From NCBI GenBank assembly GCA_035541055.1, contig DATKNZ010000297.1, positions 46-64,045 of the forward strand: a stretch of DNA of 64,000 nucleotides. The letters run 5' to 3'. Source of the stretch: Candidatus Acidiferrum sp. GTDB taxonomy: Bacteria; Verrucomicrobiota; Verrucomicrobiia; Limisphaerales; UBA8199. Numbering within the stretch: position 1 is the first letter of the stretch; each line of letters begins with the position of its first letter. This document shows, piece by piece, positions 18,499-28,787 of this stretch. The notes beneath the pieces were generated by a model. It made no database searches. It worked only from the letters and a program-made list of their open reading frames with translations, and had not been told where the DNA came from. The position numbers and the translations under genes are program-made.

Positions 18499-18543
18499 TT
18501 GGAGAGATGGCCGAGTGGCTGAAGGCGGCGGTTTGCTAAACCG
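18499..18543 (+). repeat. attL: displaced 5' half of tRNA-Ser(GCT) (acceptor stem to anticodon stem)
   Basis: 45/45 identity to 28693-28737 (ttggagagatggccgagtggctgaaggcggcggtttgctaaaccg). The sequences diverge immediately afterwards. Confidence 0.9.
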
Positions 18544-18764
18544 AAAAAGCCAAGGCGGCAGAATATCGCCAAACCCTTAGGAAAAGCCCGTATTTAGCGG
18601 GTCAAACCCACTTTTGCGAAACTGCGCTTGCGTCACGTCGCGACACCATTGCGGCCTGTTTTACGTAGGAAAATGTAGGAAAGCGCGACGGTGCGAAATT
18701 GGGGCAAAAACCGTTGCCCGGCTGGCGCGGCGTTGGAAAAGGTGTAGGAAGGCTTGCGGTTGGC

Positions 18765-19193
18765 TCATTCAACCGCGCCAGAGCGCAACGCGGCCTTGGT
18801 TTCCTCGCTGGCTTTGGCCTCAATCACCTTGGCCTTGGCTATGGTGTCATGCGAGACGCCAGCGGCTTTGGCGAGTTCCTTGCGGGTTTCGAGCGGCTTT
18901 TGTTTGGCAGATTTCTGCGTAACAGATTCCGGCTTTCGTATCTGTTGCTCCTTGGCCTTTACCCTGATTAGCGGCTCCAGCTTTAGGGCCAGGATTGGCC
19001 TAAAGCGATTTGCCCCTTGTCCAGACACCAGCCGGCCCGGAAAGGCTCTCCGTAGGCCAGCCAACGGCCTCGGGCAGCGCAAAGAATGGTGAAAATAACC
19101 TGTTGACGCCAGCCCCGACCTTTTGGTATTCTCCGCTCCGGTGTCCGCAGAGACGGGCACTTCGCCACTGTAACGCGGCCTAATCACCCGCAA
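18765..19193 (-). CDS. Small HTH DNA-binding protein, possibly a truncated remnant
   Basis: Only the C-terminal about 60 aa look genuine (KELAKAAGVSHDTIAKAKVIEAKASEETKAALRSG, an HTH pattern). There is no internal ATG/GTG/TTG start, and the N-terminal part from the TTG at 19193 looks non-coding. Confidence 0.3.
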   Translation of the reverse strand: MRVIRPRYSGEVPVSADTGAENTKRSGLASTGYFHHSLRCPRPLAGLRRAFPGRLVSGQGANRFRPILALKLEPLIRVKAKEQQIRKPESVTQKSAKQKPLETRKELAKAAGVSHDTIAKAKVIEAKASEETKAALRSGAVE

Positions 19194-19305
19194 CGGCGAT
19201 TCGACAACAGATAAACTGCCGGCGCTGGATACCGTTCGAGCTGATTACTCGGGCGGGACAAGGTCTCTGCCTTCTGGCGTCGGCATTTTGTTGAAGAAAA
19301 CAGCT

Positions 19306-19755
19306 ATGAGGACACAGACGAAAACAAACGGTGCCGGCGGAAACCGCGCGGCAGTAACTATCACCAGCAATGTCCCGGCGCGGCGCGTCCGGTTTGAAGC
19401 GGAAGCGGACACCCAATCGCTGATTGAAAAGGCAAAGGAGAAAGGCATTGACCCCGACCAGCTCATAAACGAATGCCTGCGGCGGCACTTCACGCCGCAG
19501 GACCGGCAGGCCCAGGAGGATGCGAAGTACTTCCGGCAGCTTGCAACGTTCATGTGTGACACCATGCCGCATTCGAGCGTTTCCGTGGAGGTTGGCCTCG
19601 GCGTGGACCTGATGAAACGGATTGAGCCGATGGCTAGGCGCATGGCCCGGGTTGCAAACGGCTTCTCCGGTATCGGGGATGGCGGCCTAGACGCAATCGT
19701 CAACTTGGCGCTCTGGCGGCTGGTGCAGGACAACAGCGGACACGGAAAGGACTAG
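19306..19755 (+). CDS. Putative ribbon-helix-helix (CopG/Arc-like) regulator with a C-terminal domain of unknown function
   Basis: RRVRFEAEADTQSLIEKAKEKGIDPDQLINECLRRHF fits a strand-helix-helix pattern. It is the only plus-strand gene of the element. ATG at 19306 (the ORF track uses the TTG at 19288). Confidence 0.45.
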   Translation: MRTQTKTNGAGGNRAAVTITSNVPARRVRFEAEADTQSLIEKAKEKGIDPDQLINECLRRHFTPQDRQAQEDAKYFRQLATFMCDTMPHSSVSVEVGLGVDLMKRIEPMARRMARVANGFSGIGDGGLDAIVNLALWRLVQDNSGHGKD

Positions 19756-26617: not shown

Positions 26618-27317
26618 ACGCTTTGCAATCGGTTGCGGGTTTATCGGTGCGGACTCTGACAAGGCGCGCTTCCCTGAATTTGCCGCTCGCGTGCCGGCCA
26701 AGGGCGGAAATCTCTAGCACGTCGCCAAGCCGGATCCCGTCAAAGGCGGCGCGGCATGGCAGCCAGCCGCAATCTTCGCCGGCCAGGGCAAGCCGAATTG
26801 AGCCGCGCGCCATGTCCCGCTCTGCGGCGACGCAATCAAAGGTTTCGACGCGTTTCGCCTTAAACCATTGGCAGCCGTAGGGCGCGGAAAGCCGTTTCGC
26901 AACGCAGCCTTCAGCGCCAGCACGCAATACGGCTTGCAAGTAGTCGCCGCCGGGCTGTCCAGGGCGCGCCGCCGGAATGGGCCTTATCCAGTCAGGGAAA
27001 AGCGGTTGCAACGCCAGCAAGGCAGCTCTGCGCTCGCGTAGGGGCTGCCGTCGCAAGTCTTGGCCGTTGGCTTCCAACAGGTCAAAGGCGAAGTAGGCTT
27101 TGCCGACAAGCTCACCGTCCAGCGCGCAGCCGTCCAGCGTCGCCGGCAGCGGTCCCGGCAGTGGGTAGCGCAGGGCGCGGCCTCGCAATTCGCCAGCCGA
27201 GAGCAAGGCGCGCTTGCCGTCCGCCTTGGTTTCAAAAGTCCAGTCTGGCGATGCCTGCCAGCGCAAGGCGTCTGCCAGGGCGACGGGCTGCGGCGCGGGA
27301 AAGTCTTTGAAGCTCAC
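26610..27317 (-). CDS. Minimal ATP-dependent DNA ligase (about 235 aa)
   Basis: Motif I ETKADGKR, III LDGELV, IIIa FAFDLL, IV EGCVAKR, V WFKAKR, VI-like REARLVRVRTDK. The GTG at 27317 overlaps the integrase TGA (GTGA). Confidence 0.8.
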   Translation of the reverse strand: MSFKDFPAPQPVALADALRWQASPDWTFETKADGKRALLSAGELRGRALRYPLPGPLPATLDGCALDGELVGKAYFAFDLLEANGQDLRRQPLRERRAALLALQPLFPDWIRPIPAARPGQPGGDYLQAVLRAGAEGCVAKRLSAPYGCQWFKAKRVETFDCVAAERDMARGSIRLALAGEDCGWLPCRAAFDGIRLGDVLEISALGRHASGKFREARLVRVRTDKPATDCKAYA

Positions 27318-28600
27318 TGCGCGGCCTCCGTTTTCAGGGCGACTACGTTTTCCGGCTGCTCTGGCGCAACGGCAAACCAAGCTATTGCGGCCTCGGGCTT
27401 CACAAGCTCGCGGTAGTGGCGGAAAACCACGGCGGGCGAGTTTCCGGCTTCAAGCGCAACCTGAGCGGCGTTTTGAATTGCGGCCAGCCGGTAGCTAATG
27501 AATGAATGGCGAAGCCCGTTGTCCTTCCAGGGCGTTGCGGCAGCCTTCACCGTTTCGGCGCGCACGTCTCGCAGGTCATTGTCCGTGCGCTTCCAGACTT
27601 TGCCCTTTTGATTGGCGTAGCTTGCGAGCCATGCGGCCAGGTTTGGCAGGATTGGCACAAGCCGCCGGCTGCGAGTCTTGGCCTTTTCGCCCGAGACGTG
27701 AATAAAGCCGCCAGACAGGTCTATGTCCTTCCATTCCAGCCGCTCAATTTCAGCCGTCCGCAAGCCGGCGAAAGCGCCAAGGGCCACAACCGGCAGAAAC
27801 TCCATTGACGCGGCCTTGAGCAAGTCGGCAATTTCCTTTGGGGTGTAAATCTCGATTGCGCCGCCGTTGGCTGTAATGTGTTCCACGTCCTCAACCGGAT
27901 TGCCGCCCTTGAAGATGTAGCCGCGCGACTCGGCAAAGTTAAATAGGGTGCCAAGCAGGGTGCGGAAATTCTTGGCCGTCTGCGGCGCGACTTTCAGGCC
28001 GTCAATCCAGCGTTGCACGTCCGCCGTTGTCACGCTGGAAATGTCCACGGCGTAATCTTTGGCAAATCGGCTCAGCCGGGCGGACAGGTCGCCAAGGTAG
28101 CGGGCGGACTTGCCGCGCGCGCGCTTGGCCTCAATAAGCTCGGTCACAACCTCAGGCACGCCGCGCGGCGTTACGCTGTCCGCGCCGTGCCGCTTGAAAA
28201 AGGTTGCGGCTTCAATCATCCGATCGCCGCCGAGTATTTCAACGCACTTGGCGACTGTGCCGGCGGCAACCTCCAAAGCCATGCCGGGCGGCAGCAATTC
28301 AACGGCGCGGCCATAGCTGGCAGCCTGGGCGTTTGTCATGCTGGCGGCGGTGGTCTGGCCGGTGCTTATTTGCCCGGCCAGCCTTTCGGCCAGGGCCAGG
28401 GCTTTAGCGTGCTTCGTGGTATCGTGGAAGCTGCGCTTGCCGGTGGTGTAATCCTCAACCTGAAAAACAGTGTAGTCCTTTTCGGCTGTGCTGCCGTCCC
28501 TTCGTTTGCTCTTGATGGTCTTTTGGCGGCGGTATATCTTCACCGCTACGTTGCCGATTTTGACAATTTCAGGTTTCCGGCCCTTGCGCTTAGTTGTCAT
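27314..28600 (-). CDS. int: Tyrosine recombinase / phage-type integrase
   Basis: GLRTAEIERLEWKDIDL, GLRHSFISY, AVVFRHYRELV (catalytic Tyr context). N-terminal SAM-like/arm-binding region. The ATG at 28600 is preferred because the longer ORF would abut the tRNA. Confidence 0.9.
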   Translation of the reverse strand: MTTKRKGRKPEIVKIGNVAVKIYRRQKTIKSKRRDGSTAEKDYTVFQVEDYTTGKRSFHDTTKHAKALALAERLAGQISTGQTTAASMTNAQAASYGRAVELLPPGMALEVAAGTVAKCVEILGGDRMIEAATFFKRHGADSVTPRGVPEVVTELIEAKRARGKSARYLGDLSARLSRFAKDYAVDISSVTTADVQRWIDGLKVAPQTAKNFRTLLGTLFNFAESRGYIFKGGNPVEDVEHITANGGAIEIYTPKEIADLLKAASMEFLPVVALGAFAGLRTAEIERLEWKDIDLSGGFIHVSGEKAKTRSRRLVPILPNLAAWLASYANQKGKVWKRTDNDLRDVRAETVKAAATPWKDNGLRHSFISYRLAAIQNAAQVALEAGNSPAVVFRHYRELVKPEAAIAWFAVAPEQPENVVALKTEAAQ

Positions 28601-28694
28601 GCTGTTAAATGTCGCAAATATGTCGGAAAATGTCAACAGCGGATTGAAAATATTTTCGGCAACCTGCAAACCAGTCAATGTTTGCAAGGGGTTT

Positions 28695-28787
28695 GGAGAG
28701 ATGGCCGAGTGGCTGAAGGCGGCGGTTTGCTAAACCGTTGTACGGTCAAAAGCCGTACCGGGGGTTCGAATCCCCCTCTCTCCGCCA
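28695..28787 (+). tRNA. tRNA-Ser (anticodon GCT), CCA encoded
   Basis: Acceptor GGAGAGA/TCTCTCC, anticodon loop TTGCTAA, long variable arm TGTACGGTCAAAAGCCGTACCG, T arm GGGGG-TTCGAAT-CCCCC, discriminator G + CCA. Confidence 0.9.

Follow-up and report, generated by a model that had tools for sequence, protein, structure and literature searches.

The 64-kb stretch of DNA analyzed here (hereafter called the window) contains a 10.2-kb element flanked by a perfect 45-bp direct repeat, upstream of which nine more bases are partly alike (Table 1). Both the repeat and its location at a tRNA-Ser(GCT) gene, which had been proposed in an initial annotation of the window, were reproduced, the tRNA being recognized by ARAGORN and Rfam. 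The repeat corresponds to the 5' half of the tRNA instead of the usual 3' part; this half of the intact gene is inside the shared core, and the DNA upstream of the gene is all element-derived. Intergenic patches of the element were also described as more AT-rich than the flanks; the G+C content of the element (0.61, and 0.56 at its ends) is indeed lower than that of the flanks (0.63–0.69), but the difference is modest.

A simple GC3-based gene caller gave 14 ORFs, 13 of which are on the minus strand, and missed the 84-aa ORF. The genes are ordered as integrase, mini-ligase, AlpA/Xis HTH protein, DnaB_N+AAA_25 replicase, iterons, small ORFs, and a 424-aa tape-measure-like gene. The main ORFs are all intact and tightly coupled with GC3 of the coding type, and the three coupling overlaps described previously were found (GTGA at 27317–27314, GTGA at 22303–22300, and TAAcATG at 21845–21843). 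For the integrase, ligase, and replicase, gene calls on identical contigs place the likely starts inside the longest ORFs, giving shorter products.

Table 1. Features of the element and its integration site, numbered within the window.
Feature	Position	Strand	Remarks
attL	18499..18543	.	displaced host copy of the tRNA-Ser(GCT) 5' half; perfect match to 28693-28737
142-aa ORF	18765..19193	-	weak coding signal, GC3 only 0.64
155-aa ORF	19288..19755	+	GC3 0.74; 149-aa gene call on identical contig
G+C-rich hairpin terminator	19774..19795	.	nine G-C pairs, then T-run
Tape-measure-like protein, 424 aa	19806..21080	-	closes the long minus-strand operon
75-aa orphan ORF	21085..21312	-	precedes the tape-measure-like gene, 4 nt between them
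157-aa alanine-rich helical orphan ORF	21370..21843	-	candidate tail-assembly-chaperone analogue, by position only
152-aa orphan ORF	21845..22303	-	translationally coupled to neighbours, overlaps verified
Secreted small jelly-roll protein, 121 aa	22300..22665	-	longest ORF reaches 22716
HTH protein, 84 aa	22685..22939	-	HTH_28 at E 0.0011
Helical protein with internal HTH, 150 aa	22917..23369	-	first gene after origin; TerS position of closest relatives
Protein with two CxxC motifs (zinc ribbon), 66 aa	23603..23803	-	weak matches, E about 0.006; motifs in translation
Replication origin candidate	23825..23912	.	8 TGGCAC/GTGCCA iterons, both orientations, around AT-rich spacer
Replicase/helicase, 489 aa	23955..25424	-	DnaB N-terminal domain 5.6e-17; AAA_25 3e-28
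AlpA/Xis-type HTH_17 protein (excisionase or regulator)	25591..25815	-	PF12728 1.6e-10; phrog_66 2.2e-8
237-aa protein between ligase and alpA	25880..26593	-	gene call on identical contig
Minimal ATP-dependent ligase-like protein, 235 aa	26610..27317	-	PF01068 2.2e-8; phrog_114 1.4e-8
Tyrosine integrase, 428 aa	27314..28600	-	PF00589; phrog_1 at 7.7e-31; start ATG at 28600
attR	28693..28737	.	45-bp core within intact tRNA gene
tRNA-Ser(GCT)	28695..28787	+	ARAGORN; Rfam tRNA, 59.9 bits

The integrase, ligase, AlpA/Xis, and DnaB-N + AAA_25 assignments made at the outset were borne out by Pfam and PHROG matches. The integrase gene is divergent from the adjoining intact tRNA. In the ligase-like protein, the DNA_ligase_A_M and phrog_114 matches are both partial, while a KADG motif is visible in the sequence and a homologue (9e-27) occupies the same position in a related element, L018; no PDB relative was found by sequence. 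The 237-aa protein, with no family match in Pfam, PHROG, or PADLOC, has a single homologue, in another relative (L050), and the AlpA/Xis-type protein is 59–73% identical to its counterparts in relatives. The replicase, for which 1793 homologues were found, combines the DnaB N-terminal domain with a RepA/DnaB-like ATPase and has no primase domain; given a winged HTH match at only E about 0.07, a C-terminal HTH is possible. As initially proposed, a TGGCAC iteron cluster sits directly after the rep stop codon, where 88 bp contain eight of the 32 copies in the whole 64 kb. Hexamer clusters are present 3' of rep in most relatives, and the closest Rep relatives have the same GTGCCA.

The remaining small genes are more obscure, and the minor domain calls fared less well: the winged HTH and the zinc ribbon gave weak matches only, and the RHH and coiled-coil calls found no database support. 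The 84-aa HTH protein has a positional homologue just after rep in the relative L072 (4.7e-18) and weak matches to sigma-like proteins of 180–190 aa after rep in other relatives. No Pfam or PHROG family matched the 150-aa protein, whose AlphaFold2 model (pLDDT 60.8) is all-helical with no fold match. Further downstream, neither a family nor a homologue of the 152-aa ORF was found in Pfam, PHROG, PADLOC, or the relatives' loci; the 157-aa ORF gave no family match and nothing significant in a PDB sequence search, and the 75-aa ORF, for which position alone suggests a role as cognate chaperone or assembly factor, had no family and no homologues. In total, five distal ORFs are complete orphans. 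At the attL end, the 155-aa ORF is the only gene on the plus strand; it converges on the long operon, with the hairpin terminator between it and the tape-measure-like gene, belongs to no Pfam, PHROG, or PADLOC family, and is possibly an RHH-type regulator. The 142-aa ORF resembles ParB/KorB-type HTH proteins in its C-terminal part (weak ParB-like PHROG matches, E 0.007–0.02), had no homologues in about 250 loci, and is possibly a truncated remnant.

Two of the distal genes, namely those for the tape-measure-like and jelly-roll proteins, have phage homologues. The former matched PHROG tape-measure families at 3.3e-7 and has 17 homologues with 23–52% identity, including a tail-module protein of uncultured tailed phages that is 33–52% identical over the full length; the family motifs are kept along the entire protein, and the phage homologues belong to a tail block that is strictly conserved. 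From these modest PHROG scores and the gene position, the designation as tape-measure-like, already suggested in the initial annotation, is supported. The phages with this gene in their tail module are 35–45 kb long.

Holding a gene otherwise found in the tail modules of such phages, the element might be regarded as what internal deletions, with the loss of most structural genes, have left of a larger tailed prophage. Genes flanking the tape-measure-like gene in phages were, nonetheless, undetectable in the window by tblastn and by profile comparison with hhalign, in which the 157-aa and 75-aa ORFs were also negative against the phage neighbour families. The element contains no pseudogene traces of capsid, portal, or terminase, and its backbone of integrase, alpA, rep, and origin is that of bounded elements of 6.4–11.5 kb. 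A decayed prophage, which the initial annotation had named as a reading that would overturn its own, was thus rejected, and such an origin is very improbable.

The jelly-roll protein is composed of a signal peptide and a beta-sandwich of about 95 aa (AlphaFold2 pLDDT 92.4). Among its matches are 59 representative homologues, generic jelly-roll proteins in the PDB, and many uncharacterized phage proteins; one homologue is in the structural module of an IMG/VR phage contig that also bears a tape-measure-like homologue. This is probably an accessory gene of the moron type that was acquired from that phage lineage. As some capsid proteins also use the jelly-roll fold, and as five orphan ORFs are of unassigned fold, the element could in principle be a temperate virus that is minimal but complete and autonomous, its capsid genes being unrecognizable. 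This protein has, however, a cleavable-type signal peptide, and its homologues are small accessory proteins, one of them within a tailed phage with its own HK97 capsid gene. Furthermore, no packaging ATPase was found, Pfam/PHROG domain searches recognized no capsid, portal, terminase, scaffold, or known capsid-size-redirection gene in the element, and a tape measure is senseless without a tail tube. An autonomous virus is hence scarcely credible, and the "novel minimal temperate element" offered initially is unsupported.

The family to which the element belongs is more informative. The 80 best Rep loci are mostly from Verrucomicrobiota MAGs, and 13 relatives have tRNA- or tmRNA-derived direct repeats of 23–50 bp enclosing 6.4–11.5 kb; in a fourteenth (L066), the 20-bp repeat pair has host-like genes between its copies and looks spurious. 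Only int, lig, alpA, and rep are common to the relatives and the window. In the closest relatives, a TerS gene (phrog_57, 1.3e-11; 10 loci overall) directly follows the rep-ori, at the position of the 150-aa ORF in the window, and HK97 capsid genes, with or without a protease, are present in four elements of 8.4–10.2 kb (L018, L023, L028, and L031), one of which (L023) has another, different tape-measure-like gene beside the capsid gene. Neither a portal nor a large terminase is among the 25 most frequent Pfam or PHROG families listed for the relatives. These results support the view that the relatives are small elements bounded by tRNA/tmRNA repeats with a conserved rep-iteron module and without a full virion gene set; TerS and HK97 capsid genes are hallmarks of PICIs or tycheposons. 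The same tape-measure-like family as in the window recurs, moreover, in two compact modules, one with AlpA, a DnaC-like loader, a protease-capsid fusion, and TerS (L259) and the other with a capsid gene and a 128-aa ORF (L266).

Not every member of this family necessarily exploits a phage, however. With local profiles, TerS or a capsid gene was detected in 13 of the 127 Rep-bearing loci, leaving the majority with neither, and many members may therefore be plain cargo islands. The element itself might be a tycheposon-like, integrative, and self-replicating island that has no specific helper virion and moves by vesicles, generalized transduction, or other routes, and its tape-measure-like and jelly-roll genes would then be captured phage cargo, acting for example in superinfection exclusion or interference with tail assembly, and not particle parts. 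Family members differ in a hypervariable distal module, in which relatives have defence-like domains (HATPase_c_3, SEFIR, DNA methylase, and ORF6N), the signal peptide excludes the jelly-roll protein from the virion, and cargo-only forms of tycheposons share the backbone of integrase, xis, helicase, and ligase. PADLOC, on the other hand, assigned no defence family to the window ORFs, and the TerS genes of the closest Rep relatives, the capsid genes of others, and the recurrence of the tape-measure-like family beside both speak against this reading; we thus consider a cargo island possible but unlikely.

The 150-aa ORF at the TerS position raises yet another alternative, a defective satellite that was formerly a TerS- or capsid-bearing PICI-like element and became immobile upon loss of its packaging gene while keeping its att sites. 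This ORF is unrecognizable as TerS: hhalign against the relatives' TerS family gave a probability of 7.5% with the alignment limited to the HTH. In the same direction point the truncated appearance and weak coding signal of the 142-aa ORF and the fact that the only other copies found are near-identical assemblies. Decay is nonetheless difficult to reconcile with intact, tightly coupled main ORFs of coding-type GC3, with att repeats perfect across 45 bp, and with a tape-measure-like gene retaining its family motifs over the full length. Lack of TerS is not in itself a sign of decay either, as cos-type satellites such as P4 and cos-SaPIs are functional without TerS. A decaying satellite is accordingly quite improbable.

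The element is best explained as a phage satellite that is integrated, depends on a helper, and has the architecture of PICIs and tycheposons, representing a previously undescribed lineage mostly in Verrucomicrobiota-labelled MAGs; to this explanation we assign a probability of roughly 0.6. The phage satellite was a candidate in the initial annotation, and comparison of the sequences with those of the bounded relatives, with their conserved rep-iteron module and their TerS or HK97 capsid genes, strengthens this reading. Against it stands that neither an empty site nor a circular junction nor a copy from virions was found. In such a satellite, the integrase and the AlpA/Xis HTH protein would recombine the 45-bp core in the 5' half of tRNA-Ser(GCT). 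After excision, the DnaB_N+AAA_25 helicase would bind the eight TGGCAC iterons downstream of its own gene and initiate replication, possibly recruiting the host primase via the DnaB-N-like domain, and the mini-ligase might seal nicks. The last part of the long co-directional operon would serve to exploit a helper, a tailed phage: the element's full-length tape-measure protein, of the type used by the helper, would be incorporated into tails whose other parts are the helper's, giving chimeric tails as demonstrated for Vibrio PLEs. The three coupled orphan ORFs upstream may encode cognate assembly factors, and capsid, terminase, and the rest of the tail would be supplied by the helper, of which no prophage lies within the 64-kb window. 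Because no TerS is recognizable, packaging would need a helper-like cos/pac site or an unrecognized packaging factor. Remodelling of the tail length is not implied, since the protein equals the phage versions in length.

Among known systems, PICIs (phage-inducible chromosomal islands; SaPIs and the Gram-negative AlpA-type) are similar in size (about 10 kb), in the integrase at one end, the AlpA-type regulator, the replicase with an iteron origin immediately 3', and the small downstream module for helper exploitation, and the relatives of the element have TerS in the canonical place. The element differs in having no recognizable TerS, Ppi, or Cpm, a DnaB_N+AAA_25 replicase without primase, integration into a tRNA 5' half, and relatives mostly in Verrucomicrobiota-labelled MAGs. 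P4-like satellites share the integrase, AlpA, helicase-type replicase, and tRNA integration and are packaged without their own TerS by cos mimicry, but no Sid, Psu, Delta, Eps, or P4 alpha primase domain was detected in the element. In Prochlorococcus tycheposons (preprint by Hackl et al., 10.1101/2020.12.28.424599), a tyrosine recombinase lies beside a tRNA, part of which is repeated at the opposite end, and the hallmark set consists of Xis, a DnaB- or VirE-type helicase/primase, and ligase with variable cargo, the PICI-like ones having terS or a capsid gene. The element shares the recombinase–tRNA layout, the partial copy, Xis, helicase, and ligase, but the host phylum is different, and the consulted passages of the preprint mention no tape-measure gene. 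VEIMEs (virion-encapsidated integrative mobile elements), small satellite-like elements with integrase, AlpA, and primase/helicase found in virions and in some cases integrated in marine Verrucomicrobia (PMC9618062), contradict the earlier supposition that no satellite family had been described for Verrucomicrobia-like hosts; their described gene content is similar, but they are marine.

The distal genes had also been thought to resemble no satellite gene, which no longer holds, as tape-measure genes have since been reported from PLEs, some cf-PICIs, and EPIPs. In helper tails, Vibrio cholerae PLEs replace the TMP, chaperone, and hub by versions of their own (Nature 2026, PMC12987554), and the same paper lists putative tmp genes for PLE-like elements as well as for cf-PICIs (for the latter, Extended Data Fig. 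10). Like PLEs, whose tape measure is only distantly related to the helper's, the element carries its own tape-measure-like gene while most tail genes are absent. PLEs have, however, an unrelated backbone with a serine recombinase in the reference elements (PMC9618062) and a recognizable tail chaperone and baseplate hub in place of orphan upstream ORFs, and the tape-measure-like protein of the element is not shorter than the phage versions. Mycolicibacterium EPIP satellites, which also carry a TMP (preprint PMC12822802), and the tmp-bearing cf-PICIs are likewise small satellites with a tape-measure gene and are resembled by the compact capsid–TerS–tape-measure modules described above; the serine integrase and the TerS, adaptor, stopper, scaffold, and capsid genes of EPIPs are all absent from the element.

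In conclusion, the element, of a lineage mostly from Verrucomicrobiota-labelled MAGs, would be a satellite that carries a tape-measure gene in place of the usual satellite packaging or capsid gene, a strategy first demonstrated experimentally in 2025–26.

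The element is delimited by a perfect 45-bp direct repeat, as the initial annotation had claimed, and upstream of the repeat a further 9 bases are partly alike (coordinates are collected in the table). Given the span of the tRNA-Ser(GCT) gene, which was located with ARAGORN and Rfam, the repeat corresponds to the 5' half of this tRNA, through the anticodon stem-loop; in the window, Rfam gave nothing except tRNA above the gathering score. Counting both repeats, the element measures 10,239 bp with a GC fraction of 0.61, and it lies upstream of the intact tRNA gene, so that all the DNA upstream of the intact copy is element-borne. 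The integrase adjoins attR, and the element has the size (about 8-15 kb), the att repeats and the integrase at one end that are features of PICIs. Among 14 elements with credible boundaries (the window's and those of 13 relatives), four have the 5' half duplicated, namely the window, L016, L028 and L037, where L numbers denote loci or contigs with homologues; the other elements use the usual 3' part. Integration into 3' portions of tRNA genes is the rule, as Williams reportedly stated in 2002. A near-identical second copy was present in another assembly, with 2 mismatches in 21.5 kb, and a fragment in a third, and the search for an empty site that had been proposed, for which the flanking LytB protein was looked up by exact match, yielded the occupied site only. 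We also noticed that NCBI gives the label "MAG TPA: Candidatus Acidoferrum sp." to the identical protein, whereas all close Rep and integrase relatives are in Verrucomicrobiota MAGs; either the contig is mis-binned or mislabelled, or the family crosses phyla.

Coordinates and properties of features in the window element and in related loci
Locus	Feature	Coordinates	Strand	Length	Remark
Window	Direct repeat, left	18499-18543		45 bp	
Window	ORF	18765-19193	-	142 aa	
Window	ORF	19288-19755	+	155 aa	
Window	Tape-measure-like gene	19806-21080	-	424 aa	
Window	ORF	21085-21312	-	75 aa	
Window	ORF	21370-21843	-	157 aa	
Window	ORF	21845-22303	-	152 aa	
Window	Jelly-roll ORF	22300-22665	-	121 aa	
Window	HTH protein	22685-22939	-	84 aa	
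Window	ORF	22917-23369	-	150 aa	
Window	AlpA/Xis protein	25591-25815			HTH_17/phrog_66
Window	Ligase-like protein	26610-27317		235 aa	Pfam match limited to distal part of nucleotidyltransferase domain
Window	Tyrosine integrase	27314-28600			
Window	Direct repeat, right	28693-28737		45 bp	
Window	tRNA-Ser(GCT)	28695-28787	+		
L015	Second integrase-like gene	16752-17996	-		Near distal end
L018	Bounded element			10.0 kb	331-aa capsid protein
L018	Second integrase-like gene	14140-15066	+		Near distal end
L023	Bounded element			9.5 kb	Integrated at tmRNA; 303-aa capsid protein; 411-aa protein matching the same tape-measure PHROGs as the window's (4.2e-15)
L028	Bounded element			10.2 kb	Protease-capsid fusion
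L031	Bounded element			8.4 kb	S78 protease-like protein
L131	17 tRNA genes	3733-8049		4.3 kb	On contig with Rep homologue
L265	Jelly-roll family	9938-10393			

A GC3-based gene caller recovered 14 ORFs, all but one on the minus strand, and the coupling overlaps quoted in the initial annotation are present in the sequence. Scans with Pfam and PHROGs agreed with its assignment of a tyrosine integrase, an ATP-dependent ligase (a partial nucleotidyltransferase-domain match together with a KADG motif), an AlpA/Xis protein and a DnaB-N + AAA_25 replicase; for the RHH, coiled-coil and winged-HTH labels, database support was absent or weak. The ligase-like protein is smaller than the minimal ligases known to us, has no PDB relative by sequence search and is kept at the same position in L018, a bounded relative. 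In a work on tycheposons (10.1101/2020.12.28.424599), "lig" is among the labelled hallmark-gene profiles. The AlpA/Xis protein is encoded directly upstream of rep, in keeping with the AlpA- or Stl-type regulator of PICIs. The TGGCAC iteron cluster described after rep was also recovered: 8 copies lie within 88 bp, as compared with 32 in the whole 64 kb, and they lie directly 3' of the replicase stop codon, in both orientations, around an AT-rich spacer. The element thus carries its own replicase and an adjacent iteron origin, again as in PICIs, and this arrangement is kept in the family; in most relatives, a single hexamer is repeated 6-14 times in the 350 bp that follow the rep stop codon, with GTGCCA used by the closest Rep relatives (L171, L095, L011 and L096) and other hexamers by more distant ones. 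From the sequence, rep with its own hexamer cluster is the pattern that would be expected of a replicase with a cognate origin, as in SaPI-type PICIs.

At E below 1e-10, 1793 homologues of the replicase were found, with 45-66% identity in the full-length ones. Variants exist (homologous proteins P0048-P0137) in which the same AAA_25 core (60-69% identical) is joined to primase-type N-termini instead of DnaB-N, namely the BT4734-like N-terminal domain PF08800 (named VirE N-terminal by one JGI source), PF09250, and the Toprim-type PF13155 and PF13362; the N-termini therefore look exchangeable, whereas the helicase core to which they are joined is conserved. A single-protein scan of IMG/VR with Rep gave no match and an alignment-based scan was needed; run against genomes, metagenomes and IMG/VR, the Rep alignment yielded about 240 loci, of which the genome matches were mostly in Verrucomicrobiota MAGs (Limisphaerales, Chthoniobacterales and subdivision 3), with a few in Planctomycetes and Acidobacteria. 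Thirteen relatives spanning 6.4-11.5 kb are bounded by direct repeats of 23-50 bp derived from tRNA or tmRNA. L066 was discarded as a bounded element, its 20-bp repeat apparently being a chance match, since it encloses host-like genes. The window and its relatives have no genes in common except those for the integrase, ligase, AlpA and Rep. The best match of this backbone is L018 (47, 39, 59 and 62% identity, respectively), and in the closest relative, L171 (Rep 66%, AlpA 73%), the distal genes differ from those of the window. The second integrase-like genes near the distal ends of two bounded relatives, L015 and L018, suggest tandem or composite insertions. As a separate observation, L131, in which a Rep homologue shares a contig with a dense array of tRNA genes, could be from a large phage or represent a tRNA island.

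We surveyed 136 ORFs from 15 relative loci (the 13 credibly bounded ones, L066 with its doubtful repeat and L171, an unbounded contig), in which AAA_25, integrase and HTH_17 were the recurrent families. HK97 capsid proteins were encoded three times, prohead proteases were of the Clp and S78 types, and defence-like domains were scattered among the loci; portal and large terminase were absent among the 25 most frequent of the 68 Pfam and 110 PHROG families. DUF3102 was also noticed in two relatives. The family encoded directly after rep and the origin in the closest relatives is the small terminase subunit, TerS (phrog_57, 1.3e-11), as found in L171, L011, L096, L100, L101, L021 and four more. 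Across 127 Rep loci, narrow local profiles detected this TerS in 8 and a capsid gene in 5, and both figures are lower bounds. Such TerS and capsid genes are hallmarks of PICI-like satellites and of the "PICI-like tycheposons", which combine a terS or capsid gene with an integrase, xis, helicase and ligase (10.1101/2020.12.28.424599).

In the window, in contrast to these relatives, Pfam and PHROG scans recognised no TerS, Ppi, Cpm or capsid gene, and neither a major capsid protein nor a portal nor a large terminase was detected, the local capsid profile being negative as well. The position held by TerS in the relatives is occupied by the 150-aa ORF. When this ORF was compared with the relatives' TerS, the alignment was confined to the HTH motif (hhalign probability 7.5%), which does not support its candidacy as TerS; an AlphaFold2 model built from the single sequence was of low quality (pLDDT 60.8), and Foldseek gave no match to it. 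The element lacks a complete set of structural and lysis genes, and its sole structural-type gene is the tape-measure-like one. A minimal virus that propagates autonomously is scarcely credible. A co-resident helper prophage, which had been suggested as something to look for, was not found within the 64-kb window.

The tape-measure-like gene had been called from the sequence, and its product indeed matches several tape-measure PHROGs (best 3.3e-7); the assignment draws on profile similarity and gene position and is to that extent provisional. A search of 5.8 billion proteins gave 17 homologues, about 370-480 aa long apart from a 249-aa fragment; cultured-phage databases contained no useful relatives, and in IMG/VR a single-protein scan gave no match and an alignment-based scan was needed. 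All but two of the homologues with enough context lie inside a tailed-phage structural module placed after GpA-type terminase, lambda-type portal and HK97 capsid genes. There, the gene belongs to a strictly conserved tail block with products of 112, 240, 150, 83, 141, 203-260, [about 420] and 264 aa, mostly unannotatable by PHROGs, and a "tail assembly protein" is encoded further downstream. This block was seen in the uncultured tailed phages L001, L004-L008, L255-L258 and L260, and includes two conserved ORFs between the chaperone-sized genes and the tape-measure-like gene. The window protein aligns over its whole length and keeps the family motifs, including a C-terminal motif, LQQ[IL]GAYA, common to one subgroup, and is therefore a full-length member and not a fragment. 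As in Vibrio PLEs, then, the element encodes a tape measure homologous to those of phages.

This gene is also where a decayed prophage would be expected to betray itself, by residual synteny or similarity to the phage genes that flank it. Only the tape-measure-like gene matches, and neither tblastn nor hhalign comparison of 11 neighbour families with the distal ORFs revealed any other tail-block family in the window, so that the test for a prophage remnant proposed in the initial annotation was negative; we regard a decayed prophage as very improbable. The gene was taken up alone, without its phage neighbours. Similar genes occur in other compact settings. In L259, an 8.4-kb IMG/VR contig (IMGVR_UViG_3300047160_015078), the order is AlpA, DnaC-like loader, protease-capsid fusion, a 147-aa product, TerS and a tape-measure-like protein 34% identical to the window's (7e-52); in L266 (ERZ27248001 k141_324209), it is capsid, a 128-aa product and a tape-measure-like protein 45% identical to the window's and in its C-terminal subgroup. 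In both, the protease-capsid fusion and the tape-measure-like gene are separated by no more than one or two small genes, and genes for connector, tube and chaperone are missing; each module is probably a satellite that forms capsids and combines a tape measure with another backbone. The occurrence of the gene in four small or compact contexts (L259, L266, L023 and the window) argues that it is a functional part and not debris. We consider a satellite that has become defective improbable.

Homologues of the 84-aa HTH protein occupy the corresponding position after rep in other loci. The 121-aa ORF encodes a signal peptide and about 95 residues, for which an AlphaFold2 model gave a confident fold (pLDDT 92.4), a small jelly-roll; the protein resembles many uncharacterised small phage proteins, and its fold matches are generic, without assignable function. 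Its family (P0139-P0196, and in L265) comprises 59 cluster representatives of secreted proteins of about 120-150 aa with no annotation, in which the motifs YHT, DRSLDxTNW, GKWSYxRAR and a C-terminal YLGGR were noted. One member, in a phage head-tail module, is encoded two genes after the capsid gene on an IMG/VR phage contig that also has a tape-measure-like homologue; because one phage contig carries both families, two genes of the distal operon have a common source in one lineage of phages. Immediately upstream of the tape-measure-like gene, the 152-, 157- and 75-aa ORFs are orphans for which neither sequence nor profile searches revealed a relative, and PDB sequence searches with the 157- and 152-aa ORFs gave nothing significant. 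Searches by tblastn and phmmer over about 250 loci found no homologues of the 150-, 152-, 157-, 75-, 155- and 142-aa ORFs; five ORFs of the element are without any homologue. A PADLOC defence scan of 10 window ORFs detected nothing, and a strong hairpin terminator closes the long operon. The 142-aa ORF at the attL end, which has a weak coding signal and a C-terminus resembling the N-terminal HTH of ParB/KorB-like proteins before an abrupt stop, may represent a truncated gene. A cargo island that needs no helper appears unlikely.

Satellites with tape measures have precedents. In Vibrio PLEs, a TMP, a tail chaperone and a baseplate hub are all encoded by the satellite and are assembled with ICP1 parts into chimeric tails (Nature 2026, PMC12987554); putative tmp genes have been noted in PLE-like elements and some cf-PICIs (PMC12987554), and EPIP satellites of Mycolicibacterium carry a TMP and have altered tails (December 2025 preprint, PMC12822802). 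Some VEIMEs, moreover, are integrated in Verrucomicrobia of marine origin (PMC9618062). To read the element as a satellite is therefore well grounded, but the concept is not new. In architecture, to which this comparison is confined, the window resembles a tycheposon, with the tyrosine recombinase adjoining the full tRNA and a partial tRNA copy at the distal end, this copy being of the 5' half. Unlike P4-like satellites, the window has no Sid, Psu, Delta, Eps or alpha primase-helicase in Pfam and PHROG scans, and none of the cf-PICI set (capsid, protease, portal, head-tail adaptors and TerS) is present, whereas partial sets occur in the relatives L018, L023, L028 and L031 and in L259. New here are a lineage with the DnaB_N+AAA_25 backbone, mostly in MAGs labelled Verrucomicrobiota; a tape measure without any TerS or capsid gene alongside; and integration into the 5' half of a tRNA.

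A more far-reaching reading, to which we give a probability of roughly 0.3, is that the element represents a "tail-only" satellite, in which the tape measure would be the sole recognisable phage-derived virion gene and packaging would occur by site mimicry; that it belongs to an undescribed, widespread PICI-like family, mostly in Verrucomicrobiota-labelled MAGs, whose members exchange modules for hijacking (TerS; an HK97 capsid, alone or with a protease; a tape measure); and that a subset of this family, this element included, integrates into the tRNA 5' half, so that the sole intact tRNA-Ser(GCT) copy would rely on element-borne upstream DNA for its expression. As for the mechanism proposed for the satellite itself, the element would be excised site-specifically and replicated by initiation of Rep at the iterons; it would depend on a helper from the phage lineage with the conserved tail block, its tape measure would be built into helper-made tails, and its DNA would be packaged via a helper-like cos/pac site. 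More speculatively, the DnaB-N-like domain might recruit the host primase, the three upstream orphans might act as cognate chaperones, and a variant tape measure might evade exclusion or interference aimed at that of the helper.

To our knowledge, phage satellites are well characterised only in a few Proteobacteria and Firmicutes and, recently, in Actinobacteria and marine picoplankton. The present finding points to a large family of PICI architecture, mostly in Verrucomicrobiota-labelled MAGs, many of which come from soil, peat and freshwater. Two pairs are offered for testing, namely the satellite tape measure with the tail-block phage lineage, and rep with the iteron specificity classes. 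Satellite tape measures, demonstrated in 2025-26 to build chimeric tails in Vibrio PLEs, would on this finding recur independently in a Verrucomicrobiota-labelled setting. Integration into a tRNA 5' half is a further peculiarity, of interest for the question of how an element preserves the function of the tRNA that it targets.
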